A stretch of 64,000 bases of DNA from a virus: the IMG/VR virus record IMGVR_UViG_3300033518_000130; one strand, written 5' to 3'. A program made the position numbers and the translations under genes. Positions 24,253 through 54,400 of the stretch are shown here, one piece after another (positions within the stretch are counted from its first letter, which is position 1; each line of letters begins with the position of its first letter). A model generated the notes under the pieces. That model worked only from the letters and a program-made list of their open reading frames with translations, searched no databases and was not told the DNA's origin.

Positions 24253-24711
24253 ATGAAAAAAACTGATTTTTTAATACAGTATATATATGAATTAAAAGGA
24301 TTTCTATATGGTATTATTCTATTTCTTAATATACCAGCTAATACATTAGAGATATTATACTATTTAATGATTACTGATACTATACTAGGAGTATGGAAAA
24401 GTGTTGTACTACAACAAAAATTTAGTTTTAAATTATTATTATTTGGAATAAATACTAAACTTATAATATTATCTATACCTTTGATTCTAGGATTAATAAT
24501 AAAAGGTCTTACTAAAGATTTCGATGGTAAAGAATTTCTTATTAAAGTAACTCAAATATTAATAGTAAGTGAAAGTATTTCTATTTTTTCTAGTTTATAT
24601 ACAATTAAGACTAAAAAAGAATTAGAGAATTTTGACCCTTTAAGTCTTTTATTAAAGTTAATTAGAACTCAATTCATAAATATATTTAATAATTTTATAA
24701 AAATAAAATAA
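24253..24711 (+). CDS. holin (phage_holin_4-like)
   Basis: 152 aa with 3-4 TM helices. The LYYLMITDTILGVWKS motif resembles the MxxDYxTG motif of TcdE-type holins. It lies immediately upstream of the lysin candidate. Confidence 0.55.
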   Translation: MKKTDFLIQYIYELKGFLYGIILFLNIPANTLEILYYLMITDTILGVWKSVVLQQKFSFKLLLFGINTKLIILSIPLILGLIIKGLTKDFDGKEFLIKVTQILIVSESISIFSSLYTIKTKKELENFDPLSLLLKLIRTQFINIFNNFIKIK

Positions 24712-24712
24712 A

Positions 24713-25294
24713 ATGAAAAATTATACAGATGAAGAAATATTAAATAAAATTAAGACTTTATCTAGTTTTACACATTATCCTAAAACTTACTATATAGTAG
24801 GTATTAGAAGTAAAGAAGATAAACCTGATACATACGATGATAAATTCTATATTTATAAAGGTACTACTTTTATTACTGTAATGACGGGTACTACTAATTC
24901 AGGATTATATGGATTAAAGAATTTTAATTTATGGAATAAAAAAGGCACTGCTATAGTAAAAGTAGATGAATGTTACTATAATGTATGGACTAGAGGACTT
25001 CATAAACGTAAAGTACCTGCATTGGTACAGACAGGGAAACTTAAAATTATTAGAGATAATAATCGAAATAATAAATCAGGAGATTCTAATTTATATTCTA
25101 TTGAATCAGGAATAGGAATTAATTTCCACCCTAATACTTATAACCTTAATATAGTAAATAAAATAATAAATATTATAATAGGTAAATGGAGTGTAGGTTG
25201 TAGTGTTATTAATGATATTATTAAATATAGAAGTTTTTTAAATTATACTAAACCTCAAAAAATATTTACATATATATTATTAAATGAATTTTGA
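24713..25294 (+). CDS. YkuD-fold (L,D-transpeptidase-like) peptidoglycan hydrolase, endolysin candidate
   Basis: GINFHPNT ... GKWSVGCSVINDI matches the H...SxGC(x)xN catalytic signature of the YkuD fold. It follows the holin and precedes a terminator. Confidence 0.45.
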   Translation: MKNYTDEEILNKIKTLSSFTHYPKTYYIVGIRSKEDKPDTYDDKFYIYKGTTFITVMTGTTNSGLYGLKNFNLWNKKGTAIVKVDECYYNVWTRGLHKRKVPALVQTGKLKIIRDNNRNNKSGDSNLYSIESGIGINFHPNTYNLNIVNKIINIIIGKWSVGCSVINDIIKYRSFLNYTKPQKIFTYILLNEF

Positions 25295-26879: not shown

Positions 26880-27566
26880 ATGTATAATAAAACAATATCT
26901 AGTAAAAAACTTATCTCAAGAATAGTAAATGAGTTAGGTTTAGCTAATCCTAAAGAATTAGAAGCAGATATATTTGCTTATGTAGATGACGCAATAGATA
27001 CTATGGATTTATCTAATTATTATACTCCTAAATTAAAACCAGTAGAAGTAAAAGATAATATTTTTAAACTTCCTTGTGATATTAAATATTTACATTCTAT
27101 ATATATTAATAGTTCAGGTTGTTCAGGTTGCGGAGGTAATAATTGGGGAGTTGCTAAATTAAATCTTCGTAATAATCCTCTTATAGGTTCTCTTATAAGC
27201 GGAATAGGATTTCATGATGGGCAATATGGAACAGTAGTAGGTAATAGTATTAAAACTACTTTTAATAAAGGTAACGCTTTAATAGTATATTATTCAGTTC
27301 CTAAAGATGAAAATGGATATCCTATGATACCTGATAATGCTATATTTAAAGAGGCTTTTCAGTACTATGTTATATATAGATTAGGATTTAGAGGGTTTAA
27401 TCATTCTATAATAGATTTCAGAACAGCCTTAACTAAATGGGAACAATTATACCCTAGAGCAATGGCTGATATTAATTGGTTTGATAGAGGAGATTATGAA
27501 GAATTTACTGATATTTGGACTAATCTTCGTATAGGAGATTTAAAAAATAATTTATATTTTGCATAA
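26880..27566 (+). CDS. virion/tail module protein, function unknown
   Basis: 228-aa ORF. TAATG overlap with the next gene. Confidence 0.5.
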   Translation: MYNKTISSKKLISRIVNELGLANPKELEADIFAYVDDAIDTMDLSNYYTPKLKPVEVKDNIFKLPCDIKYLHSIYINSSGCSGCGGNNWGVAKLNLRNNPLIGSLISGIGFHDGQYGTVVGNSIKTTFNKGNALIVYYSVPKDENGYPMIPDNAIFKEAFQYYVIYRLGFRGFNHSIIDFRTALTKWEQLYPRAMADINWFDRGDYEEFTDIWTNLRIGDLKNNLYFA

Positions 27567-30500
27567 TGAATGATTTTAACGGATTAAGTAACAATACTAG
27601 ACGAGTAAAAACTCCTGAAGGATTTTGGGAATTTGCTAAAAATATTGTTCTTACAAGAGGATATACCTCTATTGCTAATGAAGAAGGTAACGAATTTATA
27701 GATAACGTACCGGGAATAGTAATGGGTAAAATAGAAACTAATAAAGAAACAGTTTTTCTTAGTAGAGATGGAGAGTTTAGTTGTATAGGATATATAGATA
27801 ATGAAATATCTAATAATTATATTTCTGTTTTAAGGACTATTAACCCTTATTTTAGAATTAATCTTAACTGTCCTATTGAAGGTGTATATGTTTATAATTA
27901 TAAAAAAGAACTTATAATAGTATGGTGTGATGGAATTAAAGATGATTCTAATACTCCTAAAATATTAAATATTAAAACTTTACCATTTGAAGTAGATATT
28001 AATAAAGAATTGATTAATCCTGATAATATAACTTTATTAGATTTATTTCCTATAAGAAAAGAAGGAATAATAACAACAGAATATAAATCTGGTTCTATAC
28101 AAGGAGATGTTATTTATATTACATATACTTATGTATTAAATGATAATACTGAATTAATATATTTTCCTATAAGTACTATAGCTTGGACTACAAGAGGTAT
28201 AGAGAATATAGAAAAAAGAGGTTTAAAAATAATAATTAATAATCTAGATATTAATTATAAAAAATTAAGAATAGGTATAGTAGCTAAATTTGAAAATGCT
28301 ATAAAAGCCTATACTACTAATATATTAGAATATACTGGAAATACTATAATTTATAGTCTTTCAGGCTTATCTAATTTATCTCTTATTAATATTGAAGAAT
28401 TAATAATAGATAAACAAATATTTAATAAAATAAAAACTATAACTAAACAAAATGACCAACTATTAATAGGTAATTTAGTTACTGATAAAATAGATTACTC
28501 TGAATGGCAAAAGTATTTTAATTTATTCCAATTAGTATTAGATATAGATGTTAATGAGGAAAATGAAACTAATTCTACTTTAATGCCTGATGAAGTTTAT
28601 AGTTTCTATTGTGAAGCACAATTATTAGATGGTAGTTACACACCTGCTTTTCATATCCCTGCTCCAAAATTTGCAACAGGTAGTGATTGGGATTCTCCTA
28701 TAGGAAGTGTTAGATTAAATCAATTAGGGTTAAATGATTTAGACCCTAATATAAAACGATATAAGATAGAAAATAATGGTAGAAGAACTCCTTTTATATG
28801 GGAATTTGGAACTTTTTACAATGAAGAAACTTACCCTTTTGATGATAAATATAATAGTAGCACTATAACAGGTAATAATATTAATGATTTAAGAGGTACT
28901 CCTATACGTTATCATAGACTTCCCGGACTAGATAAAATATGTGAATACTATTTAAGTACTATGGGGACTAAAGCTATGGCTAAGTTTAAAATAAAACTCG
29001 TACCTTATGCGTTATTACCTATAGATATTGATAGTAAAATACAATCTTTTAGATTATCTTTTGTTAAAAGAAAGAGAGGAGAATCATTAGTAGAATCTAA
29101 TGGTTTAGGAGTTAAAAATATAGAACATGGTTACGAATTTGAAGGAATAAGTTGGACTGTATTATATAATAATATAAGATTTAATACAAGAACACTTATA
29201 CCTGATACTAATTCAACTACGCATAGGCAAGATTATTGTAGAAGAGATGTATTATCAGATTATTCTACATTTTGTTTTTTTAATCCTGAAGTTAATAAAA
29301 ATAGTCCTCTACTTAATGTTAAAATAGCTAAAGCTAATTATATTAAATATTTAAATCCTGATAATAATTTACATTTGATTACTGATGATATAAGGTATTC
29401 AATAATATCAGAATATAATTATTATTTACCTAATAATATAGCAGGAAAAACTCGTTTTACTCAAAATGGATTAAGAATTAAAAGTTATAATGATAGTTAT
29501 AGAAAAACAGATAATAATGGAATACCTATAATAGGAGGTAAAATATGGCAATTAAGTAAACCTTTTGTACCTTTATCAGATAATTTTGCATATCATTTTA
29601 AATTTAATTCCTTTAATATAAATACTCAATCTTATGAAGATGTTATAAAATCAGATGATGATAGTAATTGTAGAAATATAGCCAATATAACACTATTAAA
29701 TATAATAGATAATTGCTATACAGGTTTTAATCCTACAGATTTAATTATTTATAATAAATATGAAAAAAATAATAATACTTTTAAATTAGGAGGAGATGTA
29801 TTTCCAAATAATAAATTGAAAGCAAGTTTAATTACTTATGTAGTTACTAAGGATACTAATAAAGTAGGGTGTTTATATTTAAATGTAGAATTTCAAGGCT
29901 TTTATTCTTCTTATAATAATAATATTTTAAAAGGTTCTATTTTTACATTTGGAGAAAATAATTTTCTTGGGCTACATAGTAATTCAGATTTAAACACTCT
30001 CAATACACAAGATTATGAAATAAAAACTACAACTTTTTCTGATAGTTCTCATTTAAACGATTTATCTACTGTTATTATAGTTGATAATTATAAAGATTTT
30101 ATTAATTATTTTCCTTATAGAATAAATAGAAGTTCTAAAATAGCTTCAGAACAATTACAATTAAGAAGTATAAGAACTTTTCTAGTAGATGATTATTATG
30201 AAATGCCTACAGATAAAGGAGAAATAGTAGCATTAAGAGGTACTAATAATTCTGTTTATATTCAACAAAAATATAGTTTATTTTTATCTAGTATTAAAGA
30301 TAAATTAAATACATCAGGTTCTGATACTTATTTAGGTACATCAGAACTATTTGATAGATTTCCTGATGAAATAGTTTATAATAGTAATAAAGGGTATATA
30401 GGCTGCAGTAGTCAATTTGCTTGTATTATATTTAAAGGAGGGTACGCTACAATAGATCAAATACAAGGTAAATTATTTATAGTAAATGGTAATTCTCCTC

Positions 30501-31426
30501 AAGAAATTAGTATGAAAAATACTAAACAATGGTTTATAGATAACACTGATACAGGTTTAGAGTTTTTTGAAAATGATAAATTTATGAATAAACAAAGAGT
30601 AGATAACCCTTTTACTAGTGTAGGTCATATAATAAGTTTTGATGAACAGTATAATAGACTTTTATTTACTAAAAAACATTACGAATTAATAAATAAAGAT
30701 TTATTAAGTAATCCTCAATATTCTTATAAAGATGGAATATATTACAATAATAATATACCTATAAATCTTTATAATAATCCAATGTTTATAGATAATAGCT
30801 ATACTATATCTTATGCCTTAGAAGGACAAGGAAGTTTTGTATGTTTACATGATTATTTACCTAATATTATGTATTATATTAATAAAGGACTTTATAGTAT
30901 AGTAAATAACTTAAATAACAACGCTGTTGTATATAAACATAATAGTAAAGTTGTTAATCCTAGTAATTTCTATGGAGTACAATATAAAAGTTATGTAGAT
31001 TTAATATTTAATCAAAGATTAGATTTAAGTAAAATTTATCAATCTTTTATGTGGATAACTGAAGTATTTAATAATGAAACAGGTGTTGTAGAGTATCATA
31101 ATACTATAGACGGAGTATATATTTATACAGATAATCAATGTAGCGGCTTTATAGATATAAAGAATGGTAAATATAAAGTAATTAGAAATACTGAATATAA
31201 ATGGCAGTTAAACGAATTTAGAGATTTAGTAAAAGATTATAATTTACCTTTTATAGATGAAAAAGGAAATTTTTTAGAAGATAATATAAATTATAATAAA
31301 GTATTTTTTAACAAGTCAAATTTTTTAAGTAATTTTATAATTATAAGAATGATTATAAATAACGAAGAAAATAAAACAGTATATATACATAATGTAAACG
31401 TTAAAAGTGAAATAACCAAAAGATAA
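27566..31426 (+). CDS. large tail (hub/muzzle-type) structural protein
   Basis: 1286 aa and beta-rich in composition. It lies between small tail genes and ejection-type proteins. Assigned by size and synteny only. Confidence 0.4.
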   Translation: MNDFNGLSNNTRRVKTPEGFWEFAKNIVLTRGYTSIANEEGNEFIDNVPGIVMGKIETNKETVFLSRDGEFSCIGYIDNEISNNYISVLRTINPYFRINLNCPIEGVYVYNYKKELIIVWCDGIKDDSNTPKILNIKTLPFEVDINKELINPDNITLLDLFPIRKEGIITTEYKSGSIQGDVIYITYTYVLNDNTELIYFPISTIAWTTRGIENIEKRGLKIIINNLDINYKKLRIGIVAKFENAIKAYTTNILEYTGNTIIYSLSGLSNLSLINIEELIIDKQIFNKIKTITKQNDQLLIGNLVTDKIDYSEWQKYFNLFQLVLDIDVNEENETNSTLMPDEVYSFYCEAQLLDGSYTPAFHIPAPKFATGSDWDSPIGSVRLNQLGLNDLDPNIKRYKIENNGRRTPFIWEFGTFYNEETYPFDDKYNSSTITGNNINDLRGTPIRYHRLPGLDKICEYYLSTMGTKAMAKFKIKLVPYALLPIDIDSKIQSFRLSFVKRKRGESLVESNGLGVKNIEHGYEFEGISWTVLYNNIRFNTRTLIPDTNSTTHRQDYCRRDVLSDYSTFCFFNPEVNKNSPLLNVKIAKANYIKYLNPDNNLHLITDDIRYSIISEYNYYLPNNIAGKTRFTQNGLRIKSYNDSYRKTDNNGIPIIGGKIWQLSKPFVPLSDNFAYHFKFNSFNINTQSYEDVIKSDDDSNCRNIANITLLNIIDNCYTGFNPTDLIIYNKYEKNNNTFKLGGDVFPNNKLKASLITYVVTKDTNKVGCLYLNVEFQGFYSSYNNNILKGSIFTFGENNFLGLHSNSDLNTLNTQDYEIKTTTFSDSSHLNDLSTVIIVDNYKDFINYFPYRINRSSKIASEQLQLRSIRTFLVDDYYEMPTDKGEIVALRGTNNSVYIQQKYSLFLSSIKDKLNTSGSDTYLGTSELFDRFPDEIVYNSNKGYIGCSSQFACIIFKGGYATIDQIQGKLFIVNGNSPQEISMKNTKQWFIDNTDTGLEFFENDKFMNKQRVDNPFTSVGHIISFDEQYNRLLFTKKHYELINKDLLSNPQYSYKDGIYYNNNIPINLYNNPMFIDNSYTISYALEGQGSFVCLHDYLPNIMYYINKGLYSIVNNLNNNAVVYKHNSKVVNPSNFYGVQYKSYVDLIFNQRLDLSKIYQSFMWITEVFNNETGVVEYHNTIDGVYIYTDNQCSGFIDIKNGKYKVIRNTEYKWQLNEFRDLVKDYNLPFIDEKGNFLEDNINYNKVFFNKSNFLSNFIIIRMIINNEENKTVYIHNVNVKSEITKR

Positions 31427-33434: not shown

Positions 33435-36266
33435 ATGGCACAATATACAGAAGACCAAGTACAAGCTTTACTTGAGAAACAAAAAGCTCAAGTAGATAAA
33501 TATAATAAAGATTATTATAAACCTGATTTAACTCCTTTACAAGCTATAGGTAATACTGTAGTTCAAAGTAGATTATTAGGCAATGAATACCAGAGTACAG
33601 CTGCTCCTGTTTATGTTCATAAACCTATTGCTCAAACAATAGGTTTAATGGAAGATGTAGAAAAAAGATATATTAAAAATAAAGAAGATGTTAATGTATT
33701 AAATAACACTATTAATAGATTAGAAGCTTCCGCTACTACAGATAAAGATAAAGAGATAGCTAGTAATTTAAGAGCGTCTTATAATAATTTTAATTCTCAA
33801 TTTAAAGACGGAAATGTTCATTTAGGAGATGCTACAGTAGATATAGGAGATTTTACTAATGATTTTCAAAATAAATTAGGAGCAGGAGCTTTAAAAGCTA
33901 AATCTGATGCTGATATGTTAGCACGACAAATATTAAGAGAAAAATTAGATAAAAAAACTCTTGATGAAGAAGATTATCAAAGACAAATTAGAAATCTTAA
34001 TGAGATTAATCCTTATAAAACTACTGAAGACGGTAGTATAGTTTATAATAATAAACCTCACGAAGATTTATTATTAAATACTGTTAATTATTACGATGTA
34101 GATAAAACATTAACTCCTTTCTTTAAAGATTTTAAAGCTACTGGGTATGTTGATAATCTTGACGGAACATTTACTATTACTAAAGAAGGTAGCGGTCTTA
34201 CTGGATACGAAATGGGTAAGATTGTTACAAAAGAAGAATTAGATGAAGCAGGTACTAAATTATTAGAAAATGATTCTAATTATACTGCTTTTAGAGATGA
34301 TAAAATTACAAGTAGAATATCAAGTATATATAACGTAACAAGTAAAAATCCTGATGGAAGTATAACAAATGAGGGGGCTGAATATTTATTAGGAGAATTA
34401 AAAGGAATGGTAAGTGAAGAAGATTATAAACAATTACAATCTTTAAGTCCTAAAGACCTTCAAAATCAAATTGAAACAGGTAATGTTTTAAATTCAGTTA
34501 AAAATAAATATACTAAAGACCAAATAGAGCCTTATTCATCTGCTTTTTCATACAAAGATAGAGAGATCAAAGTAATGAATGATCCAAAACAACAACAGAT
34601 ATGGGTAACAGAAGCTACAGAACAAGCAGCTCTTATAGCTAATGAAAAACTAATATCAAGTGGAAACTTAAACAAAAATACTGATATACAAAATTTTTCT
34701 TATACTACAGATCCTTATAATACAAGTACTATTATTAGAGATGTAGAAAGTACTATACAACTTAATGTAGCAGATATAGGAAATTTAGATAAAGAAAAAA
34801 ATAAACATGAAGTGAGTTTTAATTCAATTTCTAAAACGTATAATATTAAAAGAAGAGAGTTAGAACAAATGAAAACTAAATTAGGAGATAATTATTCTAA
34901 GGATAAAACATATCAAAATTTAGCTAGTAGTTTAGAAAAAGACGAAATAGCTTTAAGTTTAACAGAAGCTAAATATAGAGCAGTTAAAAAACAAGCAGAA
35001 GATATACGAGAAAATGTTGTAGAAGCAGCTAGACAATCCCCTAAGTATTCAGAAACTTATAATAAGATAATGGATAAATTAAAAGCTAATAATATAGAGG
35101 AAGGGATAATAAAAAGATTAGCAGGTTCAATAATGGCAGCTAAAGTAGAAACTGATATATATAGTTATAAAAATCCTAATTTTATTAATAATAGTAAAGA
35201 AAAAAATCAACAAATTATAAATAAAATAGGAAAAGATTTAAATATTGATCTTACTGAAGTAGTAGAAAGTACTAGAGGAGGAAAAAGTAAAAGACCTTCA
35301 GCTTTAGCTAATACTATTCATAGTGTATTAATAGACGATTCTATCCTAACTGATGATATTTTATCTAAAGCAAAATATAGAGAATTGACAACAAGAACAT
35401 TATCCGTTTCTAAACCTGATGCAAAAGATTTAGCTTCAAAAGAATATATAAACTTTATGAATACTTTACTACCTACAGCTTCAGGTATGAGTTCTATGGA
35501 TATAAGAACTGGAAAAGTTATAAATTCAGTAGAATTAGTAAAACTTAAAGCTAAAGAATTAGGTTATGAACCTAAAGAAATTAATGCTACTCCTATAAAA
35601 ATAGAAACTGTAACAGATCCTAATAATATTTTTTATACAAGTGATAAAAAAGGATTTGTACAATATAGAGTAACTTATCAAGTAGAAGATACTAATACTA
35701 AGAAAAAAGAAAATATTACTGTTATATCTACTAATGCTTCTTCTAATAATGCTGAAAGTGATTCTTATGAATTAAAAAAACATATAAAAGGAATATTTAA
35801 ATCACGACCTAAAAGTATAATGGAAAATCCTGTTCAACGAGCATATTTTGGAGAATTTTATGCTAATTATAATTCTGAACTTTTAAAACAATTTAGTGAT
35901 GCTAATTATGTAGCTACTAATTTTAAAACTATAGGAAAAAATGCAATGCCTACTTTTATTAGTATTCCTAATACTAATATTGAATATGCTTTTCCTTTAG
36001 AATATACAGGAGGAGGAGATTTAAACGATAGCGATAAAGTTAATCCTTTAAAATACGATGTTCAACTAATTCAAAAAGATGGAAATAGTTATAAAATTAT
36101 GGTTAGTGATAATGGAGTAGAAAGATTAGAAGATAAATCAGTTTATGATGCAAATATAGGAAAAAAAGATAAATATTTTGCAGTAACTAAAGCATCTTTA
36201 GAAGATTGGAAATCAGAAATAGGAATAAATGCTTTAATAAATGAAATAGCACAAGAGGGAAAGTAG
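33435..36266 (+). CDS. virion protein (zero-frame product, 943 aa); probable N-terminal part of a frameshift fusion with an M15 peptidase
   Basis: Long ORF ending in ...EGK-TAG. The last codons form the slippery heptamer G_GGA_AAG. Confidence 0.6.
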   Translation: MAQYTEDQVQALLEKQKAQVDKYNKDYYKPDLTPLQAIGNTVVQSRLLGNEYQSTAAPVYVHKPIAQTIGLMEDVEKRYIKNKEDVNVLNNTINRLEASATTDKDKEIASNLRASYNNFNSQFKDGNVHLGDATVDIGDFTNDFQNKLGAGALKAKSDADMLARQILREKLDKKTLDEEDYQRQIRNLNEINPYKTTEDGSIVYNNKPHEDLLLNTVNYYDVDKTLTPFFKDFKATGYVDNLDGTFTITKEGSGLTGYEMGKIVTKEELDEAGTKLLENDSNYTAFRDDKITSRISSIYNVTSKNPDGSITNEGAEYLLGELKGMVSEEDYKQLQSLSPKDLQNQIETGNVLNSVKNKYTKDQIEPYSSAFSYKDREIKVMNDPKQQQIWVTEATEQAALIANEKLISSGNLNKNTDIQNFSYTTDPYNTSTIIRDVESTIQLNVADIGNLDKEKNKHEVSFNSISKTYNIKRRELEQMKTKLGDNYSKDKTYQNLASSLEKDEIALSLTEAKYRAVKKQAEDIRENVVEAARQSPKYSETYNKIMDKLKANNIEEGIIKRLAGSIMAAKVETDIYSYKNPNFINNSKEKNQQIINKIGKDLNIDLTEVVESTRGGKSKRPSALANTIHSVLIDDSILTDDILSKAKYRELTTRTLSVSKPDAKDLASKEYINFMNTLLPTASGMSSMDIRTGKVINSVELVKLKAKELGYEPKEINATPIKIETVTDPNNIFYTSDKKGFVQYRVTYQVEDTNTKKKENITVISTNASSNNAESDSYELKKHIKGIFKSRPKSIMENPVQRAYFGEFYANYNSELLKQFSDANYVATNFKTIGKNAMPTFISIPNTNIEYAFPLEYTGGGDLNDSDKVNPLKYDVQLIQKDGNSYKIMVSDNGVERLEDKSVYDANIGKKDKYFAVTKASLEDWKSEIGINALINEIAQEGK

Positions 36267-36811
36267 ATAGTAGTACTTCTGGAAGTACCAGCAATGGAGG
36301 AAGTACTAAAGGATTTATAAGAAATACTTATAATCCTAATAAATCAGAATTTGATATTGCTTTAGCAGAACAAAGTAATACTAAAAAGTATAAAGCTGAA
36401 AATAGAGCAAAAGAAGGAACTGCTGCTGTAGGACTAGTAGATTTAAAAGATTATGTAGATACTAAACATCTAACAGATTCTAAATTCAGAGCTAATCCTA
36501 TAGTAGCTAGTAGGTTTAAAACATTAGTACAAGATTACCCTGATTTACTTGTTACTAATGGGTTTAGATCTGATTCTGAACAAAGAGCAGTAAATCCTAA
36601 AGTAGATAGTTCAGAACATGAATACGGATTAGCTTTAGATGTTCGTTCTAAAGATAAGAGTGGGGAAGCAGGTATGTTATTAGCTAGTCAATTTAGCGAC
36701 CCTTTAAAAGCAAAAGATTTATTTAAGAAGTACGGAATAACTCGTATTTTAAAACATAAAGTAAAAGGAGGAGCTGTTCATTTTCATATCGAATTTAATC
36801 CTTATCAATAA
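36245..36811 (+). CDS. M15 (VanY/LAS-type) zinc D,D- or L,D-peptidase domain, open only in the -1 frame and lacking its own start codon
   Basis: The -1 frame is open from 36245 to the TAA at 36809-36811. It has no ATG/GTG/TTG before the catalytic motifs. Motifs present: TNGFRSDSEQ, SEHEYGLALD (SxHxxGxAxD) and AVHFHIE. Confidence 0.65.
   Translation, partial: NSTRGKVDSSTSGSTSNGGSTKGFIRNTYNPNKSEFDIALAEQSNTKKYKAENRAKEGTAAVGLVDLKDYVDTKHLTDSKFRANPIVASRFKTLVQDYPDLLVTNGFRSDSEQRAVNPKVDSSEHEYGLALDVRSKDKSGEAGMLLASQFSDPLKAKDLFKKYGITRILKHKVKGGAVHFHIEFNPYQ
36257..36288 (+). promoter_or_regulatory. -1 programmed ribosomal frameshift cassette (slippery heptamer + spacer + hairpin)
   Basis: g gga aag at 36257-36263 in the zero frame, the same heptamer as lambda G/GT. 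The zero-frame TAG follows immediately. After a 9-nt spacer comes the hairpin gtacttc-tg-gaagtac at 36273-36288. Confidence 0.6.
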
Positions 36812-36822
36812 ATATTATTATA

Positions 36823-39800
36823 ATGGGAAGACAAAGAAAACCAATAAAACCAACACCTACTGATTATATAATTAATTCAGTAAAACAAAATAATAACCCT
36901 TTAGGAGGAATAGATACAGCTGATAGTATTAAACAAACTACAACTCCTCCTATAGATATACTACAAACTTACAATCGTAATGCTCCTACTATTGCTTCTA
37001 GTAATGCTTTAGATGTAGGAGAATATAGCGGGTACGGAGGAGTTTATGATGCTATATCTTTAGATAGAGAACAGGCTGATAGAACTAGAGCAGAAGGGCA
37101 AAGTGGATTAGCTCAAATAAGAAATGCTATAGGTAGAGTAGTAACTAATATTCTACCTGAAATAGTAAAACAAGCTGCTAATATGCTTGACCCTGAAGAA
37201 TACCTTCAAAATGATAGAGAAGTAGGTAATAGTATAGCAGAAGCCATGACTAGTTTACAAGAAAGTGCTAATGAATCCATGCCTATATATCGTACTAACC
37301 CTAATGAATCATTTGATTTCGGAGATTCAGGATACTGGCTTGAAAACGGTGCTAACTTAGCTACTAGTGCAGGTGCTTTTGCAGCTCTTGGTTGGGCTAC
37401 AGGTGGGGGAAGTTTAGCAACTCTTACTAGAGGTGCTAAAGTACTTAAAGGTTTAAATATGGCTAGAAAAGGAACAGGAACTCTAGCAAATATTTTTTCA
37501 GAAGGTACTAATTTAATAAGATTAAGCAACTCTACTCAAAAAGTAGTTAGAGGAGCATCTACATTATCCTCAGCAATATTACTTAACCAAGCAGAAGGAG
37601 TAGGAGTAGCAGTTGATGTTTATAATGAACAGTATAATAAAAAACTAGAAGAACTTAAATCTAACGGATTAAACTTTAATAAAAGTGATGAAGAATTAGA
37701 ATACGAAGCTAAAACACACGCCTCTGAAGCTGCATCAAGTGCTATTGCTTATAATAGACTTAATATAGCATTAAACTTAACTAGTGCTAATATGTTAATG
37801 AAGCCTTCAATGGTTACTTCTAAGATTCTTACTAAACCTGGAGTAATGAATACTTTTAAAAACATCGGATTAGAAGCAGGGCAAGAAGCATTAGAAGAAG
37901 AAGTAAATCATTTATCTCAAAAACTAGTAACAGATAAACAAGGAAAAGTAAGAGGGTTTTTCGATATGGCTAAAGCTACACTTAGTAGTGAAGGAGCTAA
38001 TGAAATGTTTTCTGAACAAGGTTTAGAAAGTGCTATGTTAGGAGCAATAGGAGGAGCAGGACAAACTGCTATTACGGCTGGAATAGGTAATTTAAACATA
38101 AGAGCTAATGATACTTATAATAATAGTTATAAAAATGAAACAGTTAAACTCCAAAACGAAAATATATTAAACGCTATAAACGGAAAACCTCAAATAAGTG
38201 AAGCTGAAATAGAAACTAAAGCTAAAGCAAAGGCTTTACAAGAAGCAGGTACTGATAAAGAAAAAGTATCTGATTTTTTTATTAAAAAACAACAATATAT
38301 TCTACAACAAGAGCAAATACAAAAAGAAAAAAATAGATTTGAAGGTAATCCATCAGATGCTAACTTCTTACTTCAATCAGGTAAAGAACAAGAAGAATTA
38401 CAAAAAAAGATAGAAGAAGCTATTAACAATGGAGATAACGAAAAAGCAGATAGTTTAAAAGATGCTCTTATAGAGAAACAAGCTTATACAGCTTTTCAAA
38501 TGGGTACTACTCAGAATTTAGTAGATTTATATTCAGGTATTTCTACATTATCTCCAAATGAAGCTAAAGCAAAAGGATTAACAGATGATTATAAAGAAAA
38601 AGCTATACAAGCTATAAATGATATAAAAGAATTAGAAGATATATATACTGATTCACAAGCTAATTATCATAATTCAGAAGATGTTTATGATAGTAAAAAT
38701 TTTTTAAGAGATTTAAGTAAAGCCGAGAAGAGATTGACTAGTCGTTTAGTTGAGTTAAATACTCCTATTAATCAATCTCTAGATAATAAAATCAATGAAA
38801 AAGCTAAAGTTGTTCAAGAGAGAGAATTAATAGAAAAGTTTAAAAAAGAAAAAGAAGACTATTTAAAAGATTCAAATGCTACAGATAATAAAGAAGCTAA
38901 AGATTGGTTAAAAGGAAGAGCAGAAGAAAGACAAAAAAGAATAGATGAAATAGATGAAAAAAGAATAGAAAGACAAGAAAAAGAAATTGAAGAATCTATT
39001 AAAGCTAAACAAGAAATAGAGGATATTATAAACGGTAAAAAAATAGAAAGTGTTGATAAAAAAGATACTGACGGAAAACTTTTAAAAATTAATTCTTTTC
39101 TATCTCCTGAAACTATAGCTTTATTAAAGAAAGAAGTAAACGGAGAACAGTTGTTAAAGGTTATTCAACAATTACAAAATAAAGATGGAGAAGGAATAAG
39201 AGATTTTAAAGATAAAACAGAAGAAGTTTTAGGAATAATAACATCTTTTGAACATCAAACAAAATTATATAAAAGCTATAAAAAAGCTAAGGAAAAAAGA
39301 GATAAAGAAGATAAAGAGCAAAAAGCTAAAGATAAAGAAGCTAGAAGAAAAGAAAGAATAGCTAACTCTTGGCTAAATAAATTTAATAGAAATAAACAAA
39401 ATGATATAGAAGATAATACAGAAAATGATAAAGAGAGTAAAGACAAACCTAAAACAGATACATCTCTTCTCGGCTCAACTGTAATACCTGTTAATACTTC
39501 TATACCTGTTAATACTAATGTTGAAAGTATATTAAACTTTTTTAATAATAAAAGTAATAACCCTATTATTTATTTTGATTCTAATACTATTATTTTTAAT
39601 AATGAGCATTATACTAATTTTAGAAATAATAATAATGCTGAACCCTTTAAAATTAATCAAAATGAAACAATTTTTTCTTTTTTTAAGAGATTAAAAGCAA
39701 ATAAAGAATATTCTTTGTTAGAAAATAATAAAGTATTACCTTTATTAGCAGAGGGAAAAACATCTATATTTAAAGATAGTTTACAACAAATTTTAATAGA

Positions 39801-42800
39801 TTTAATTAAAGATGTTTCTAATACTTATCCTTTATTATCTAATGAAGAAGTAGTTAATAATCTTATTAAAGAATTAAAAGATTATATAGATATTATAGGA
39901 AAAGATTACAATATTTCTAGTAATGTAATTTTAACAGATTCTAAAACAGGAGTATCTACTACAGTGGATTTAATACTTACTAATAAAACTACAGGAAAAG
40001 TAAAATTACTTAATTTTTCTAGTACTTATAATAAAGAAGGTAAATTAAAATCAGAGAATGAAAAATTAGAAGTTAATAATTTAAAATTAGCTACTGTACT
40101 TTTAAAAAATCAAGGAATAGAAGTAGAACAAGCTACAATTAAACCTATTAAATTAACAGTAAAAGAAGATTCTATAATTCCTACAGATAATAATAATATT
40201 AATTTTGATAATATCGAATTAGTAGATAACTCTATTGATGTTAAAACTGATGATAAATCTATTGATGTTAAAGTAAATAAAATACTAACTAAAGATTTAA
40301 TAATATCTTTAACTAATCCTTTTCAATTAGATTCAGAAGAAGCATCTAGTGAAGAAAATGAAGATGAAAATAGTATAAGACTTGAAGCAATAAGTTCACA
40401 AGTAGATAATTTATTAATACTACAAAGAAATCCTAATGAAACTATTGAAACTTATGTAAGACGAGTTAAACAAAGTATATATAATACTCATCAAGAAAAA
40501 ATAGAGGAACTAGAAAATGATTTAAAAGAACAATTAGAAGAAGCAGAAGATGAAAATATATTAACTAAAATACAAATTATAACTAATTTAAATTATCCTA
40601 CTTTTCTTACTAAAGAAGTAGCTGATTTAAAAATAAAATATTTATCGGATTTTATAGATAATATAGATAATTATGCTGAAACTGATGAAGATAAAGAAGC
40701 TTTAATTAAAATAATAGAAGATGAAATAATTAATATTGAAGAAGAAATAATAAATATTTTAAAAGGATTAAATACCTTAGAAAATAACCCTAAATTTATT
40801 TTTTATGAAGAAGTTAGAGATTATTTAAAAAAGATAACTGATATACTAGAAGATAATGGTAATTTAGATAAAGTAGATAAAATAGAATTACTTAAAAATA
40901 ATTTCGATTACATAAAAGGTTTAGTAGAAGAAAAATTAGGTATATCTATAACTCCCGAAGATTTAGTAACTTTCATTAAACAATACAATAAATATGAATT
41001 AAGACCTGAATTTCTTTTAAAAGAAGTTTATAATGAAATCCTAGTAGATATATTTAATAATATTTTTAATTTATCTGAAGATAATAAAATATTAGATATG
41101 AATGAAATCTTCTTAACACAAGAAGAATTAGATTCTAATAAAAAAATTATAGATGATGAAATTAAAGAAATATTAAATGATTTTTCTCCTTTAATAGAAG
41201 ATTTTTCTTTTGATAAATTTTTAGAAATACATAAAGCTCATATTAAATTCTTAAATGGTAATTTATCTAAAGGAGAAGTATTTGTTGATGATGAAATAAT
41301 GTCTATGGGCAAATTAGTAAACTCTATGAGTTCTTCATTAGCTTATCTTTCTAAAGAATATACTTTAGAAATGGAAGAAATTAATGGTATTAAACGTAAA
41401 GTTTATAAAGAGAAAAATAATAATTTAAATCCTGAAATAGATACTAGGGTAATAGATATTAAATCTGGAGATAAAGTAGAATTTGAAGTATTACCTTTTA
41501 TATCCTATGTAAGAGAAAAATTTATTAAAGAAGAAAAATATACAGTTAAAGAAGAATTAATACAAGAAGGAATTGAATATAGAAAAATTACTACTATAAC
41601 TAATCAAAAAACTGGTATATCAGAAATTACTGAAGAGATGGTAGATTTTTTATCTAATGCTCCTATACAAATTAAAATAAATGGAGAACCATATAAAGGA
41701 TTATTTATTAGAACTCTTGCATCTATAGGAGTTAGTACAGTTAAAAGTATTGAAGAAGTAGAACAAGAAAAAGAATTATTATTAAAATTAAGAGAAAATA
41801 TTTTAACTAATAATTTAACAGAAACTAAAATAACAATTATAGGAGAAGGACATTTAATAGATAATGTAGAAGGAGCAAAAAAAATAAATGAGGCTTTTCC
41901 TGAAGATGAAGTTAAAATAGGCTATATAAATAAAAAAGGAGAACCTGTTGAAATTATTAATGGAGAAGAAATTCCTATTGTATTAGATAATATTAATTAT
42001 TTAAATAAAATACAAGAAGCAGGAATAGAAGTAAGAGGTAGAAATATATTATTAATTCCTAATGAAAATGGAATTAGTTATACTTTTTCTTTTTCTAAAT
42101 CTGATATTATTTCAAATGAGATTAAAACATCTATTAATAAAGTAGTAGAAATTTATTTAAATAAATTAGCTAAAAACCCTTTAAGTAAAGAACAAGAAGA
42201 GATATGGAAAAGAGTGTTAAAATCCTCTAAAGATTTAGATAATGATACTTCTAAAGATTTAGATAAACTATTCAATTATATAAATAGTTTTGTAAATATA
42301 ATATTTGATAATAAAGGATTAAACTTAGAAAAAGAATTATTTAAAGACGATTTACAAGATAAAAAATTAGAAAAATATATAAATAAACCTTTAATAATTA
42401 AAACTTCTACAGGTATTAATTTTGGAATAGGAGGTAGTACTTATGCATCAGGTTTTATTCCTATTAATAATATAAAAGGAATTTCTAATAATCAAATAAA
42501 TGAAATACTAGAAAAATTAGATAAAGTATTAGAACAAAGTAACTTTAATTATAGATTATTTACTGCTAAAAGTAATGAAACTTTTATAGTAAATGAAAAT
42601 AATAATATAGAAGAAAGAAAGTATGACGAAATAGTTAAAAATAATCAATCTACTCCTTTTACTAGTATTGAAGTTAATGGTAAAAAAGTATATAAAGTAC
42701 AAAAAACTTTATATATTGATACTAAAGAAGAATCAGAGAATCAGAAAAATAATAAAGAATTTAATCCTATTATTAATACTATAGAAAATGAAATAAGACA

Positions 42801-43980
42801 AAGTATTTCAGAAGAAGTAATTTTAAATCCTTTTAATAAAGATGAATATGTTATATTTGATAAAAATGGAAATATTGTTAAAAAGTTTGATAGAGTTAGT
42901 AGTTTAAAAGAGAAAAGAGGAAAAACTATATTTAAAGATGAAAAAGCTGCTCATAGAGGAAATATAGTTGATAACTTGTTAAGAGTTTTTATAGAACAAG
43001 ATAATATGTCTTTAGAAGAATTAAAAGAAATCTATAAAAATACAGACAAACAAACAAGTTTATCTTTTTCAGATATTACTTTAAATAGTTTATTTTTAAA
43101 TTTTAAAGAGATTAAATCTCATTTTAATTTAAAAGGTATAAAATTAATTTCTAATATACCTACTTTATACGGTAATATAAATGGAAAAGATATAGCAGGA
43201 ACAGTAGATTTATTAGGAATAAAACCTAATGGAGAGATATTTATTATAGATTTAAAAACAAGTTCACAAAATAGAACAGATAAAAAGAATAAATTTTATG
43301 AAGATTATTTAAGTGATGATACTATACAACAATCAGGATATGCTGAGTTATTTGGACAAGTAACAGGTAAAAAAATTAAAAGTATTTTTATAGTACCTAT
43401 ACAAATGTTTAAATCAGATGAAACTACTTATGGTTATACTTCATTATCTGCTGGAGAAGATATTGTATATGAACTTAAAAAAGATAAAAATATTTGGAAA
43501 GATAGAAAAGAAACTAGTAATACTCAAACTACATCTACTACTCAATCTAAAGTAAATATTAATATAAATAAATACGGTAATGACGTAATAAATAATAAAC
43601 CTTTATCTACTTCTATTAGTATTGAAGATTATAATGATAATTTTGGAAATTCTAGTAATATAGATTTAGAAAGTATTGAAGATTATATCCCTGAACCTTA
43701 TTTTAATAATCAAGAAGAATATGATACATATTTAGAAGATTTTAACAAAAGACGATTAGAATATATAGAAAATCTTAAAAAAGAACAAATAACAGAACCT
43801 ATTACTCAAGAGGATAAGTATAAAAGTAAAGACTTAGAACCTCTTAACACTTCTCTTTCGGCTTATACTTCTGAGTTAAATATAGACCCTATACTATTTG
43901 AAGAATTTATGCAGAAAAATATGAATACAATAATAGAGCAATTAAAAGATAAAGAATTAATAGAAGAAATTTGTAAATAA
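36823..43980 (+). CDS. giant virion (ejected/cargo-type) protein with C-terminal RecB-like PD-(D/E)XK nuclease domain
   Basis: 2385 aa. N-terminal Gly/Ala-rich hydrophobic segments (ATSAGAFAALGWATGGGSLATL and MLGAIGGAGQTAITAGIG) are followed by long coiled coils. The C-terminal nuclease motifs are AAHRGNIVDNLL, GTVDLLG, IFIIDLKTS and IQQSGYAELF. A degenerate copy (TTVDLILTNKTTGKVKLLNFSST) lies mid-protein. Confidence 0.6.
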   Translation: MGRQRKPIKPTPTDYIINSVKQNNNPLGGIDTADSIKQTTTPPIDILQTYNRNAPTIASSNALDVGEYSGYGGVYDAISLDREQADRTRAEGQSGLAQIRNAIGRVVTNILPEIVKQAANMLDPEEYLQNDREVGNSIAEAMTSLQESANESMPIYRTNPNESFDFGDSGYWLENGANLATSAGAFAALGWATGGGSLATLTRGAKVLKGLNMARKGTGTLANIFSEGTNLIRLSNSTQKVVRGASTLSSAILLNQAEGVGVAVDVYNEQYNKKLEELKSNGLNFNKSDEELEYEAKTHASEAASSAIAYNRLNIALNLTSANMLMKPSMVTSKILTKPGVMNTFKNIGLEAGQEALEEEVNHLSQKLVTDKQGKVRGFFDMAKATLSSEGANEMFSEQGLESAMLGAIGGAGQTAITAGIGNLNIRANDTYNNSYKNETVKLQNENILNAINGKPQISEAEIETKAKAKALQEAGTDKEKVSDFFIKKQQYILQQEQIQKEKNRFEGNPSDANFLLQSGKEQEELQKKIEEAINNGDNEKADSLKDALIEKQAYTAFQMGTTQNLVDLYSGISTLSPNEAKAKGLTDDYKEKAIQAINDIKELEDIYTDSQANYHNSEDVYDSKNFLRDLSKAEKRLTSRLVELNTPINQSLDNKINEKAKVVQERELIEKFKKEKEDYLKDSNATDNKEAKDWLKGRAEERQKRIDEIDEKRIERQEKEIEESIKAKQEIEDIINGKKIESVDKKDTDGKLLKINSFLSPETIALLKKEVNGEQLLKVIQQLQNKDGEGIRDFKDKTEEVLGIITSFEHQTKLYKSYKKAKEKRDKEDKEQKAKDKEARRKERIANSWLNKFNRNKQNDIEDNTENDKESKDKPKTDTSLLGSTVIPVNTSIPVNTNVESILNFFNNKSNNPIIYFDSNTIIFNNEHYTNFRNNNNAEPFKINQNETIFSFFKRLKANKEYSLLENNKVLPLLAEGKTSIFKDSLQQILIDLIKDVSNTYPLLSNEEVVNNLIKELKDYIDIIGKDYNISSNVILTDSKTGVSTTVDLILTNKTTGKVKLLNFSSTYNKEGKLKSENEKLEVNNLKLATVLLKNQGIEVEQATIKPIKLTVKEDSIIPTDNNNINFDNIELVDNSIDVKTDDKSIDVKVNKILTKDLIISLTNPFQLDSEEASSEENEDENSIRLEAISSQVDNLLILQRNPNETIETYVRRVKQSIYNTHQEKIEELENDLKEQLEEAEDENILTKIQIITNLNYPTFLTKEVADLKIKYLSDFIDNIDNYAETDEDKEALIKIIEDEIINIEEEIINILKGLNTLENNPKFIFYEEVRDYLKKITDILEDNGNLDKVDKIELLKNNFDYIKGLVEEKLGISITPEDLVTFIKQYNKYELRPEFLLKEVYNEILVDIFNNIFNLSEDNKILDMNEIFLTQEELDSNKKIIDDEIKEILNDFSPLIEDFSFDKFLEIHKAHIKFLNGNLSKGEVFVDDEIMSMGKLVNSMSSSLAYLSKEYTLEMEEINGIKRKVYKEKNNNLNPEIDTRVIDIKSGDKVEFEVLPFISYVREKFIKEEKYTVKEELIQEGIEYRKITTITNQKTGISEITEEMVDFLSNAPIQIKINGEPYKGLFIRTLASIGVSTVKSIEEVEQEKELLLKLRENILTNNLTETKITIIGEGHLIDNVEGAKKINEAFPEDEVKIGYINKKGEPVEIINGEEIPIVLDNINYLNKIQEAGIEVRGRNILLIPNENGISYTFSFSKSDIISNEIKTSINKVVEIYLNKLAKNPLSKEQEEIWKRVLKSSKDLDNDTSKDLDKLFNYINSFVNIIFDNKGLNLEKELFKDDLQDKKLEKYINKPLIIKTSTGINFGIGGSTYASGFIPINNIKGISNNQINEILEKLDKVLEQSNFNYRLFTAKSNETFIVNENNNIEERKYDEIVKNNQSTPFTSIEVNGKKVYKVQKTLYIDTKEESENQKNNKEFNPIINTIENEIRQSISEEVILNPFNKDEYVIFDKNGNIVKKFDRVSSLKEKRGKTIFKDEKAAHRGNIVDNLLRVFIEQDNMSLEELKEIYKNTDKQTSLSFSDITLNSLFLNFKEIKSHFNLKGIKLISNIPTLYGNINGKDIAGTVDLLGIKPNGEIFIIDLKTSSQNRTDKKNKFYEDYLSDDTIQQSGYAELFGQVTGKKIKSIFIVPIQMFKSDETTYGYTSLSAGEDIVYELKKDKNIWKDRKETSNTQTTSTTQSKVNININKYGNDVINNKPLSTSISIEDYNDNFGNSSNIDLESIEDYIPEPYFNNQEEYDTYLEDFNKRRLEYIENLKKEQITEPITQEDKYKSKDLEPLNTSLSAYTSELNIDPILFEEFMQKNMNTIIEQLKDKELIEEICK
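38722..38736 (-). repeat. CTYTCGGC-motif copy 11
   Basis: Plus strand gccgagaagagattg. Its first 13 nt are the perfect reverse complement of 39462-39474. Confidence 0.8.
39461..39476 (+). repeat. CTYTCGGC-motif copy 12
   Basis: catctcttctcggctc. Confidence 0.85.
43847..43864 (+). repeat. CTYTCGGC-motif copy 13
   Basis: acacttctctttcggctt. Confidence 0.8.
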
Positions 43981-51405: not shown

Positions 51406-54400
51406 TGGATAATTGTACATTTCAAATAAACGGAATAGATAAAATATTTAACTCTGAACAAGAAGTATTAGATTATATAAATAGTAATCCTATAGCAAAA
51501 GAATTAATAAAAAGTATCAATAGAAATATTGATACCTTTGAAAATAAAGTAAATAGTAATGAAACTAATATAACTAAAACTAAAGCTGAAATTAAAGAGT
51601 CTGTTAATCCTACTACATTTACTAGTTATTCAGGAGCAGCTAAAGGAGGAGATACTGTTTGGAATGATAAAGGTAAAAAATATAATATAGGAAAACAAGT
51701 AAATTATGTACCTGATACTTTACAAAAACTAGATGAAAATCAAAGAAAGATAGTAGAAGATGCTTATCAACAAGCAGTAAAAGATTTAGGAAGAAAGCTC
51801 TTACCTTATGATTGGAATAACCCAAATAAGAAAGATGAGAACGATAAAAGCATATATTTTGCTGGAGGTTTAGTTAGAAGAGATTTTTTACAAGCTAAGG
51901 CATCTGATGCTATATTTGCTATTAGTGATATTATTTTACCTAATGAAGAAGGTAAACCAGTAAAAGGCAAAAGGTATTCTAACAAAATAAATAAAGCTAT
52001 TGTAGATGGAGGTACTGGTTATGCTGTTCAAATGGCTATTAATTTAGGTAAACCTGTATATGTATTTCATCAAGGAAGTAATAAAGACAATTCAACAGAA
52101 ATAGGTTGGTATAAATGGGAATCAGAATATAACTTATTAAGAGAAAATACTAATAAAGGAAAATTTGTTAAAGTAGATACCCCTATATTAACTGAGAAAT
52201 TTGCTGGTATAGGAACAAGAGAAATAAATGAAGCAGGGAAACAAGCTATAGAAGATGTATATAATAAAACATTTAAAAGTTTAAATACAAATAACAATCA
52301 AAATGTAAAAGGAGAAGAAATAAATAGCTATGCTGATAATTTAGCATTTGCTTTAACTAATCCTACTGTAACATCACCTAAAGGATATACTTGGAGCAGA
52401 CAATGGACTGCTGGTCAAAATAGTTGGAGAAATTATATGTCTAAAGGTATAGACTTTAATGGTGTTAATTATAAAGATGTTGAAGAAGCATATCAAAAAA
52501 ATAAAAATAATTATCCAATAGGCAAAGCAAGAGATAATTTTATGCTTTCTTTAATAGAAATAAAACTTAAAACATATCCTAATTTAGTAGAAGGTATTGA
52601 TAAAAAAGGTGGGGTAGGTTATATTTTAAATTCTACACATCAACCAACTAAACAAAATTCACATTGGGAATCTGGGGGTAATAATGCTTTTATTAAGTTA
52701 TTAGCTCAAGCATATCAAAATGTAATTAACAATCAAAATGTTAATACAGAATTAAATAATAGTAAAGTAGAAGAAAAAATAAATATATCAAATTCTACTA
52801 ATGGATTACAAAATATAAGTAACCAATCTACAAAAGAACTTGTTAATCCTATCTTAGAACAAGGCAGATATGTTACTTTTAACGGAGAAACTTATATAGT
52901 AACTAAACAAAATTCTAATGGAACGTGGCAAATATATAATTCTACTAAAGAAGGAACAAAGGCTAAAAAATCAGTAAGTGAAGAGAATTTAACATTATTA
53001 AAAACTAAAGCTGAAATAATTAATTATAAAGGTACAGATTACATTGTTACTCCTAAAAAAACTATAATTAGTTTAACTACTAATAAAAAAATGGAATGGG
53101 GAGAAGAAAATGGAGATAGAAGAAGTATTTTAGGGTTAGCCGAGAAGAAGAGTGATTCTGTTTCTGTTGTTTCTACTTCTACCACCTCTAATAATAAAAG
53201 TATTACTATTAAGATTCCTACACCTAAACAATTTAAAACTCCTAAACAGAAAGTTAAAGATAACAGTCCATTAATTAACACAGGAGATAAAAAAACTGAA
53301 GCATTAACTAGATTAGGATTTAAAAATAATAGTAATGAAATCGGATTAAAAGCTCTTATTACTAGAACTATAGGAGATGAACCTGCATTAGTATCTATTA
53401 AAGATTTGTTATTTAAAGCTATAGATAATCAAAAATTAAATGATTTACCTGTATTTATAGATAATAATTTAAGTCAAAGAGGAGAATTAAAAAGTAATAA
53501 TGGAATACCTTTATATATTAAAATTAATCCTAATAAAATAATACCCGATTCTAATAAATTATTTACTACAAAAGATGAAGCAGAGATTAAAAAAGTATTA
53601 TTAGAAGAAATATTACACGCTGTTACTAAAGGAGCATTAGTTAAAACAAATTCTAAATTAGTTAATGATTTAACTAATATTAGAACAGAAGCATTAGAAT
53701 TATTAGAAGGTTCTTATCCTTCATTGAATAGTGTTATAAGTAAAATAAACGAAAAGAAACCCTTAAATAAAAAAGATTATATTATATATAAACTTTCTAA
53801 TAATACAGAGTTTATTCAAGCATTTATTCAAGAACCTAATTTTAGAAAAATACTTGCAGATATAGGAAAAGATACTAAAACACTTACTGTTCCTACTTCT
53901 ATATTAGCTAGATTAAAAAGCTGGTTAAGTGATTTATTTAGTAGTTTATTTCCAAATACTAAAGATGTTAGTAATTTAGCTCGTAGAGCAGTAGTTACTA
54001 CGTTTCAAATACTAGAAGATAGTTCTATACTAGAAGAATCTAGTATTATTAAAACTAAAAACTCGTTAATCAGTGAATTTATATTAAAAGATGATAAAGG
54101 TAATAATTTAGTTATTAATAATGCTACAGAAGTAGCTGAATTTATTAATAATAACGTAAGAAATATTAGAGCTTTTGTTAATGAAGATAATACGATAGAT
54201 TTACAATATATAGATTCAGCTCAAGGAACAGTATCCGATTACAATATTTCTTATAGTGATGAATTTGAAGATTTTGAAAATATTACTAATAATGTTGAAG
54301 ATTTTATAGACGCAGGTAATTTTAATCTTAAATCCTTAACATCTTATCTTAATCAAACTTTAAAAAGATTAAAAGATAATAAAAGAAGAATAAGAATAGA

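Follow-up and report, generated by a model that had tools for sequence, protein, structure and literature searches.

Ribosomal frameshifting by -1 on the heptamer G_GGA_AAG, C-terminal modules appended by frameshifting to phage structural proteins, and virion-associated hydrolases are already known. The lambda G/GT tail-assembly chaperone reportedly uses a -1 frameshift, C-terminal extensions of structural proteins are made by frameshifting in T7 (10A/10B), in Listeria phages A118/PSA and in SPP1 (gp17.1*), and Ig-like domains are said to be added in the same way to phage structural proteins. The internal core/ejection protein gp16 of T7 carries a lytic transglycosylase domain, and the Tal protein of the lactococcal phages Tuc2009/TP901-1 occurs as isoforms with and without a C-terminal peptidase lysin domain. 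CrAss-like phages rank with the most abundant viruses of the gut. Here, these systems were compared with a gene of 943 amino acids (aa) and a peptidase-encoding segment in its -1 frame. Both lie in a stretch of 64,000 nucleotides (nt) from IMG/VR record IMGVR_UViG_3300033518_000130, which is called the window below and to which all coordinates refer.

In phage PhicrAss001, the cargo proteins gp45 (C1) and gp46 (C2) are packaged in capsid and tail and were proposed to be ejected and to form a trans-envelope channel; no hydrolase was reported among them (PMC10172136). The ejection proteins of N4 appear to lack a peptidoglycan hydrolase (PMC13434306). The original prediction for the window had proposed a -1 frameshift that appends a peptidase to the 943-aa protein, and was unaware of any virion lysin delivered as a frameshift extension. 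In line with this, neither a frameshift-appended virion lysin nor a frameshift of this kind in Crassvirales was found in the open-access full-text literature. From the comparisons below, programmed -1 ribosomal frameshifting is considered the probable and best explanation of the split between the two frames.

Frame junction and peptidase domain of the -1 frame

The junction comprises the following features.

33435..36266, plus strand: 0-frame gene, 943 aa, N-terminal module of a predicted 1,125-aa fusion; ends with GAG GGA AAG TAG
36257..36263, plus strand: slippery heptamer G_GGA_AAG in X_XXY_YYZ phase; the sole in-phase GGGAAAG of the window, identical in five assemblies
36264..36266, plus strand: 0-frame TAG stop that abuts the heptamer; TAG is rare as a stop here (4 of 40 genes)
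36263..36811, plus strand: -1-frame extension of 182 codons plus TAA, without ATG, GTG or TTG before 36674; profile match to fused relatives from nt 36284
36263..36310, plus strand: Ser/Thr/Gly-rich linker VDSSTSGSTSNGGSTK in the -1 frame, the same in both cassette alleles
36271..36308, plus strand: predicted stem-loop and candidate frameshift stimulator with a 10-bp stem (36271-36280 paired with 36299-36308)

The end of the 943-aa open reading frame (ORF), the in-phase heptamer, the abutting stop and the open -1 frame had all been described in the original prediction and were verified in the sequence. The -1 frame is closed by a TGA at 36242-36244, 18 nt upstream of the slip point, and is then open to the TAA at 36809-36811. 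At the G+C content of the window (24.5%), 182 stop-free codons are expected by chance with a probability of about 1e-8. The only ORF in this frame that starts with ATG, GTG or TTG comprises 45 aa (36674..36811) and is located 3' of the H119-x6-D126 motif (36617-36640), as the ORF listing confirmed for the earlier claim that no such codon precedes the catalytic residues. Since there is no start codon before the catalytic motif and the frame is closed upstream, translation can enter it only from the 0 frame. The virtual fusion has 943+182 = 1,125 aa (corrected from an earlier figure of about 1124 aa) and reads ...AQEGK-VDSSTSG..., with EGKVDSSTSGSTSNGGSTK as the junction peptide. The gene that follows the peptidase frame starts at 36823. 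Read-through or reassignment of TAG was rejected, because the 0 frame past the TAG runs for only 17 codons to a TAA and falls short of the peptidase; the window lacks tRNA genes, and all of its genes are intact under code 11.

The minimum free energy (MFE) structure predicted downstream of the heptamer is a stem-loop of -11.9 kcal/mol (z = -2.0), which starts 7 nt after the heptamer; 9 of 200 shuffled sequences folded as well. All of it falls in a block in which the two cassette alleles show 100% identity, which stops at 36310. The 7-bp inverted repeat gtacttc-tg-gaagtac (36273-36288), which had been named as the hairpin, is present, but its 2-nt loop is not feasible. Pairing with the second gaagtac copy, which had been offered as an alternative, is the predicted MFE structure.

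In the proposed mechanism, the 943-aa gene and the 182-codon -1 segment would be a single functional gene with two modes of decoding. The majority of ribosomes would stop at the TAG at 36264 and release the 943-aa protein. A fraction would slip by -1 on G_GGA_AAG, with re-pairing of tRNA-Gly from GGA to GGG and of tRNA-Lys from AAG to AAA, and the adjacent stop and the stem-loop 7 nt downstream would probably aid this slippage. Slipped ribosomes would run through the Ser/Thr/Gly linker into an M15/LAS zinc peptidase and complete a 1,125-aa protein. The product would be a mixture of the 943-aa and 1,125-aa forms, and the peptidase would cut peptide links of peptidoglycan locally at entry.

The segment reached in this way contains the following features.

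36503..36808, plus strand: M15/LAS-type zinc peptidase core, supported by motifs, profile and fold evidence
Key residues: R102 (36566-36568), H119 (36617-36619), D126 (36638-36640), H173 (36779-36781), H175 (36785-36787) and E177

By motif and modelled fold, and below the Pfam threshold, this segment is a divergent M15-type zinc peptidase. An exhaustive representative search yielded eight homologues besides the 45-aa ORF call of the window itself (P0002). In the alignment of the nine sequences (24-40% identity), R102, H119, D126, H173, H175, E177 and F178 are invariant, a set that fits the LAS/M15 pattern of H-x6-D plus HxH. Three concordant sub-threshold Pfam matches (VanY, M15_3 and M15_4) were obtained at about 15 bits, compared to cut-offs of 23-25 (E 0.02-0.03), and an endolysin PHROG matched the segment at 8e-4. 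The family profile gave matches to the Listeria phage endolysin Ply500 and, over GGFR...NSxHxYGxAxD (E 0.005), to the Streptomyces zinc D-Ala-D-Ala carboxypeptidase 1lbu. No match was found by phmmer of the peptidase segment against the PDB, the fused relatives described below gave no Pfam match, and word-indexed homology searches with the peptidase frame or the domain alignment returned nothing or one protein.

The domain was modelled with AlphaFold2 at a mean predicted local distance difference test score (pLDDT) of 70.9 and a predicted template modelling score (pTM) of 0.72. Searching the model against the PDB with Foldseek gave the LD-carboxypeptidase LdcB (4oxd) as the three best matches, with moderate scores (probability 0.87-0.98, E ~1e-2, TM ~0.4); everything ranked below them was noise. 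The best Foldseek matches in BFVD were dominated by viral Peptidase M15/M15A proteins. The M15 signature had been called complete from the letters: the R, H, D and HxH motifs are indeed present, but the Pfam thresholds were missed, so that profile and fold evidence was needed for the assignment.

M15-like domains of 31-40% identity were also found in the interior of 820-2,250-aa proteins on IMG/VR contigs of 21-257 kb (L011-L016). These were rejected as family members, as the giant proteins that contain the domains are unrelated and belong to other, unrelated large phages. An M15-type peptidase may be widespread in internal or giant proteins of the virion type.

Fused relatives, a second split lineage and cassette exchange

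In four of the homologues (P0007-P0010; 1,068-1,128 aa), the peptidase domain is located in frame at the extreme C-terminus of a large protein. Two further fused genes encoding 1,005 and 1,115 aa were recovered from IMG/VR and a metagenome (L009, L010), giving six distant fused relatives of 1,005-1,128 aa, compared to 1,125 aa for the virtual fusion of the window. Their gene order is that of the window: Ring2, x, Ring1, a protein of ~1,300 aa, one of ~700 aa, the fused protein and a giant ORF. The N-terminal parts of the fused proteins are weakly and colinearly similar to the 943-aa protein (E 1.5e-10 for P0009; 18-20% identity). At the homologous linker position, the fused relatives have no frame break, heptamer or homopolymer.

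A hidden Markov model (HMM) was built from the C-terminal 330 residues of the six fused proteins only and searched against the three forward frames of the split loci. In the window, positions 68-141 of the HMM matched the 0 frame and ended at ...INEIAQE (weak, E 0.029), and positions 168-323 matched the -1 frame from nt 36284 (E 2e-20). As the match is in the 0 frame up to the heptamer and in the -1 frame after it, homology changes frame at the heptamer.

A further lineage with a split gene (P0004) is represented by two short contigs from different samples (L004 and L005), which are identical over 401 nt. The upstream ORF of L004 ends with ACT GGA AAA AAG GAG TAG and thus contains an in-phase A_AAA_AAG with the stop one codon later. 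A hairpin with a 5-bp, G+C-rich stem (GCGGU-N6-ACCGC; z -2.6) is located 5 nt past the heptamer. Positions 14-157 of the fused HMM matched the 0 frame of L004 (8e-12) and positions 161-325 the -1 frame (1.5e-35); the latter match begins 12 nt past the heptamer, and from its start it is 180 nt to the ATG selected by the gene caller. In the full-length alignment, the junctions of the window and L004 are within two columns of each other, and both are ~13 residues downstream of a conserved sP-D-I...IG motif. Identity between L004 and the window is 13% in the N-terminal and 27-28% in the C-terminal module, and the two split lineages are not sisters in rough trees. The shared junction position in divergent, non-sister lineages means that the split is either old and maintained, or arose twice.

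The original prediction had proposed that relatives be inspected for either a fused in-frame gene or the same heptamer. The former is present in the six distant relatives, with the same gene order. As to the latter, the same -1 split is found at the homologous linker in the second lineage, with a different, also canonical heptamer (A_AAA_AAG).

The locus, the 943-aa protein and P0009 had no match among GenBank phages by blastn or tblastn. Nothing was returned from IMG/VR when it was scanned with the 943-aa protein, with the N-terminal module of L004 and with the junction DNA as an exact sequence, and scans of genome contigs gave no result. Two further split calls were set aside as uninformative: that of L002 (P0005) coincides with a 10-N scaffold gap, and that of L003 (P0006) is on a chimeric short contig without translation to the query. 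L002 is a relative close to the fused P0010, and its gap (2265-2274), which produced an artificial split call, corresponds in position to the predicted frameshift junction. The two may coincide by chance, or heterogeneity of the linker may have broken the assembly there.

Within the population of the window, five sequence variants of the 943-aa protein were present in the protein collection, all of exactly 943 aa. The junction is identical to that of the window in L001 and L017-L019, which were taken from Logan, JGI and MEGAHIT-style ENA assemblies of different samples. Genomes of the L001 type match the window at 99.75% identity over 12.9 kb on the upstream side and at 99.5% over 9.6 kb on the downstream side, and differ strongly in one feature.

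36311..36790, plus strand: exchangeable peptidase cassette, the only strongly divergent stretch relative to L001-type genomes (~40% aa identity)

Both cassette alleles are stop-free and retain all catalytic residues. Divergence begins two bases after the predicted stem-loop, so that the exchange affects the enzyme module but leaves the heptamer, the stop, the stem-loop and the linker unchanged. Because a canonical start is lacking in the window-type cassette, its translation must have come from upstream, in the donor as well as here. The L001-type allele (L001 12877-13360) was found in four contigs, and the window-type allele in the window and, by P0002, in an 84,233-bp JGI contig.

Between the window and L001, 21 codons of the 943-aa gene differ (19 nonsynonymous, 2 synonymous), with clusters at 34004-34750 and 35214-35323; in one dense patch, ...IDLTEVVESTRGGKSKRP... 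of the window is replaced by ...INLTEEVDRGRLGKSTIP... in L001. The nonsynonymous excess suggests diversifying selection. A diversity-generating retroelement was rejected as the source of these substitutions, as they are not adenine-specific and a template repeat was not found. The muzzle-like gene (27566-31426, plus strand) has 5 nonsynonymous and 2 synonymous differences, and seven other genes of the 12.9-kb block have none or one.

Proposed frameshifting and rival explanations

Heptamers of the type X_XXA_AAG occur at 5 of the 20,171 in-phase positions in the genes of the window, compared to 13 expected from codon usage; at the other four sites, a stop in the -1 frame is reached within 2-10 codons. 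Generic X_XXY_YYZ heptamers are common near gene ends (7 of 40 genes), so that the heptamer alone is not significant.

Several points weigh against programmed frameshifting. The case for slippage and for two products is comparative, not direct. Deletion of 1 nt from an ancestral GGGAAAAG, GGGGAAAG or A7 run would itself leave a heptamer-like sequence, which weakens the heptamer statistics, especially for the A6 run of L004; for this reason, a naive heptamer probability of 0.0012 was down-weighted. Both stem-loops have modest z values (about -2 to -2.6), and the lineages are too few for covariation. L004 and L005 represent one strain and the window-type assemblies one near-clonal population, which leaves two independent lineages only. 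An in-frame TTG in the L001-type cassette and an ATG directly upstream of the core in L004 would in principle allow independent initiation in these two. Finally, the efficiency of X_XXA_AAG slippage is not established in Bacteroidota, which would be the host if it is like that of other crAss-like phages.

As a deletion can create heptamer-like sequence, the heptamers alone cannot separate recoding from a real frameshift mutation, and the argument rests instead on the positional coincidence, the intact cassettes and the absence of runs in the fused relatives. A real and fairly recent 1-nt homopolymer deletion may have uncoupled a dispensable peptidase and left the -1 segment as an untranslated relic that is so far undecayed. 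Loss of one base from ...GGA AAA GTA GAT... or ...GGA AAA AAA GGA GTA... reproduces both junctions exactly, the window-type assemblies are ~99.7% identical and thus one young population, and the in-frame relatives indicate that the ancestral state could have been fused. However, the same type of lesion would be needed in two unrelated lineages, within 2 columns and at the start of a ~180-codon dispensable region, and both lesions would be directly followed by a stop and a hairpin at frameshift-type spacing (5-9 nt). The three cassettes (window, L001-type and L004) are stop-free in DNA of ~25-30% G+C and keep R/H/D/HxH, and cassette exchange has left the junction unchanged. Moreover, G3A3 is no hot-spot in a gene with 23 A-runs of at least 5, which are likelier sites of indels, and the fused relatives have no run there. 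Deletion is therefore considered rather unlikely.

Synthesis of the peptidase as a separate small protein from its own internal or non-canonical start is regarded as improbable. It would be in keeping with the 163-aa (TTG, L001-type) and 109-aa (ATG, L004) proteins given by gene callers, the ATG of L004 being located just before the conserved core. The window allele, however, has no ATG, GTG or TTG before 36674, past the H-x6-D motif. In L004, homology to the fused relatives reaches 60 codons upstream of the ATG, back to the heptamer. In the -1 frame, the linker has no stops and is conserved, and the domain is part of a large protein in six relatives. No Shine-Dalgarno sequence is evident upstream of the 36823 start, a single site that was looked at and thus weak evidence against a start.

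The same fusion could also be made by transcriptional slippage, in which RNA polymerase adds one base in the run. In the A6 run of L004, one extra A in the mRNA would produce the -1-frame continuation, and crAss-like phages use their own unusual polymerases; the giant ORFs of the window resemble gp47, gp50 and gp49. The site in the window, on the other hand, consists of G3 and A3 only, which is generally far below known slippage tracts, and both sites are canonical in-phase ribosomal heptamers with downstream hairpins. This explanation, too, is held to be improbable. A sequencing or assembly indel in one continuous ORF, which the original prediction had named as a possible source of the split and for which only the prior speaks that a 1-nt frame break can be artefactual, is excluded by the identical junction in five assemblies from different pipelines and samples, the constant 943 aa of all upstream variants and the identity of L004 and L005 across two samples.

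Gene context and comparison with known systems

The window carries structural genes of the crAss type in a long block on one strand. In this block, PHROG matches identified the terminase (phrog_6681), portal (phrog_6547) and major head protein (phrog_11589). No GenBank crassvirus has a terminase with more than about 29% identity to that of the window, which places the window as a deep-branching crAss-like phage. Ring proteins and a gp43-like protein are followed by a 1,286-aa protein, a 663-aa gene, the 943-aa gene and three giant ORFs.

24253..25294, plus strand: holin and endolysin-like pair; holin phrog_13191 (5.6e-12; PF05105) and 193-aa endolysin-like phrog_33083 (2.6e-11)
26880..27566, plus strand: gp43-like gene, resembles gp43 of PhicrAss001 (3.5e-12)
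27566..31426, plus strand: muzzle-like gene, 1,286 aa, weak match to the C-terminus of the crAss muzzle
36823..43980, plus strand: first giant ORF, resembles gp47 of PhicrAss001 (E 2.4e-7)
43993..: second giant ORF, resembles gp50 of PhicrAss001 (E 2.6e-11)
51405..58121, plus strand: third giant ORF, gp49-like by a best-domain E of 2.3e-6 (whole-protein E 0.11)

The 943-aa gene is thus placed between the muzzle-like gene and the gp47-like giant gene, which is the position of the cargo proteins in PhicrAss001. By this position in the gene order alone, its product is a putative virion-packaged cargo/ejection protein. Alignment of the family profile to gp45 and gp46 by hhalign gave a probability below 1% for each; the earlier label of a virion or ejection protein thus agrees with the gene order, but without detectable homology to gp45 or gp46. 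A function of the M15 domain as the endolysin of the phage is unlikely, because a separate lysis pair is present and the domain is not needed for lysis. By analogy, delivery with the virion as an entry hydrolase would be its best-supported role.

The lysis pair is embedded in the structural block just 5' of the ring protein genes, with the endolysin-like gene directly after the holin. The giant proteins are RNA-polymerase-associated, and two matches in them indicate extra domains: the N-terminus of the third giant ORF (51405-58121, plus strand) matches a DprA-like PHROG (2.8e-6), and residues 2044-2180 of the first (36823-43980, plus strand) give a sub-threshold match to PD-(D/E)XK nucleases. 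On the opposite strand, a 152-aa protein (59860-60321, minus strand) has a Pfam Acb2/Tad1 hairpin domain above the gathering score (7.4e-8) and is a candidate anti-CBASS/anti-Thoeris nucleotide sponge in a crAss-like phage. In the same opposite-strand block, its gene adjoins that of a 338-aa protein (58822-59838, minus strand) with a strong DUF932 match (5.7e-52).

On balance, a broader picture is slightly favoured for this deep-branching crAss-like clade. A conserved -1 signal (heptamer, abutting stop and stem-loop) at a domain boundary of a cargo/ejection protein would set the fraction that bears the peptidase, the enzyme cassette would swap between near-identical genomes, and sister lineages would have the enzyme hard-wired in frame. 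In that case, crAss-like cargo would have its first assigned entry hydrolase, and phage ejection proteins their first example of a frameshift that appends an enzyme. The locus bears on how crAss-like cargo proteins and the genome cross the cell wall, and points to a family of ~1,100-aa proteins in cargo position that end in an M15-type peptidase. It further suggests that at least two lineages dose the enzyme by ribosomal frameshifting, not by outright fusion, and offers a testable case of recoding that sets enzyme stoichiometry inside a virion. Because of the frame break, the domain is missed or truncated by gene callers, which give 'genes' of 45, 109 or 163 aa. A lysin cassette that can be swapped in this way may track the cell-wall chemistry of the host.

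Compared to lambda G/GT, the predicted event shares the identical G_GGA_AAG near the 3' end of the upstream gene and a -1 slip that yields a C-terminally extended minor isoform of a virion-morphogenesis protein. The lambda product, in contrast, is an assembly chaperone that is absent from virions and encoded, in long-tailed phages, between the gene for the major tail protein and that for the tape measure, whereas an enzyme domain on a protein in crAss-like cargo-gene position is concerned here. Apart from the heptamer, the lambda-type arrangement of two small, overlapping ORFs for chaperones was not found: the upstream ORF encodes 943 aa and is surrounded by ring, muzzle and giant genes of the crAss type, and there is no tape measure. 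In T7 10A/10B, A118/PSA and SPP1 gp17.1*, recoding near the end of a structural gene likewise adds a domain to a subset of the copies and fixes its stoichiometry, but the added modules are decoration or Ig-like/FN3 domains, not peptidoglycan hydrolases.

With T7 gp16 and virion-associated hydrolases, the proposed protein would have in common that an ejected internal virion protein carries a cell-wall hydrolase for entry, distinct from the endolysin for lysis. The domain of gp16 is an N-terminal, in-frame transglycosylase, whereas the M15-type peptidase is C-terminal here and would be reached by recoding. Tal resembles the predicted arrangement in that a virion protein occurs in two isoforms, one with a C-terminal peptidase lysin; its isoforms arise by proteolytic processing of one product and its domain is M23, whereas the two forms predicted here would be set at translation. 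The fused orthologues (P0007-P0010, L009 and L010) agree with the window in position, colinear N-terminal module, C-terminal M15-like domain and total length. They differ in having no frame break, so that every copy of the protein carries the peptidase.

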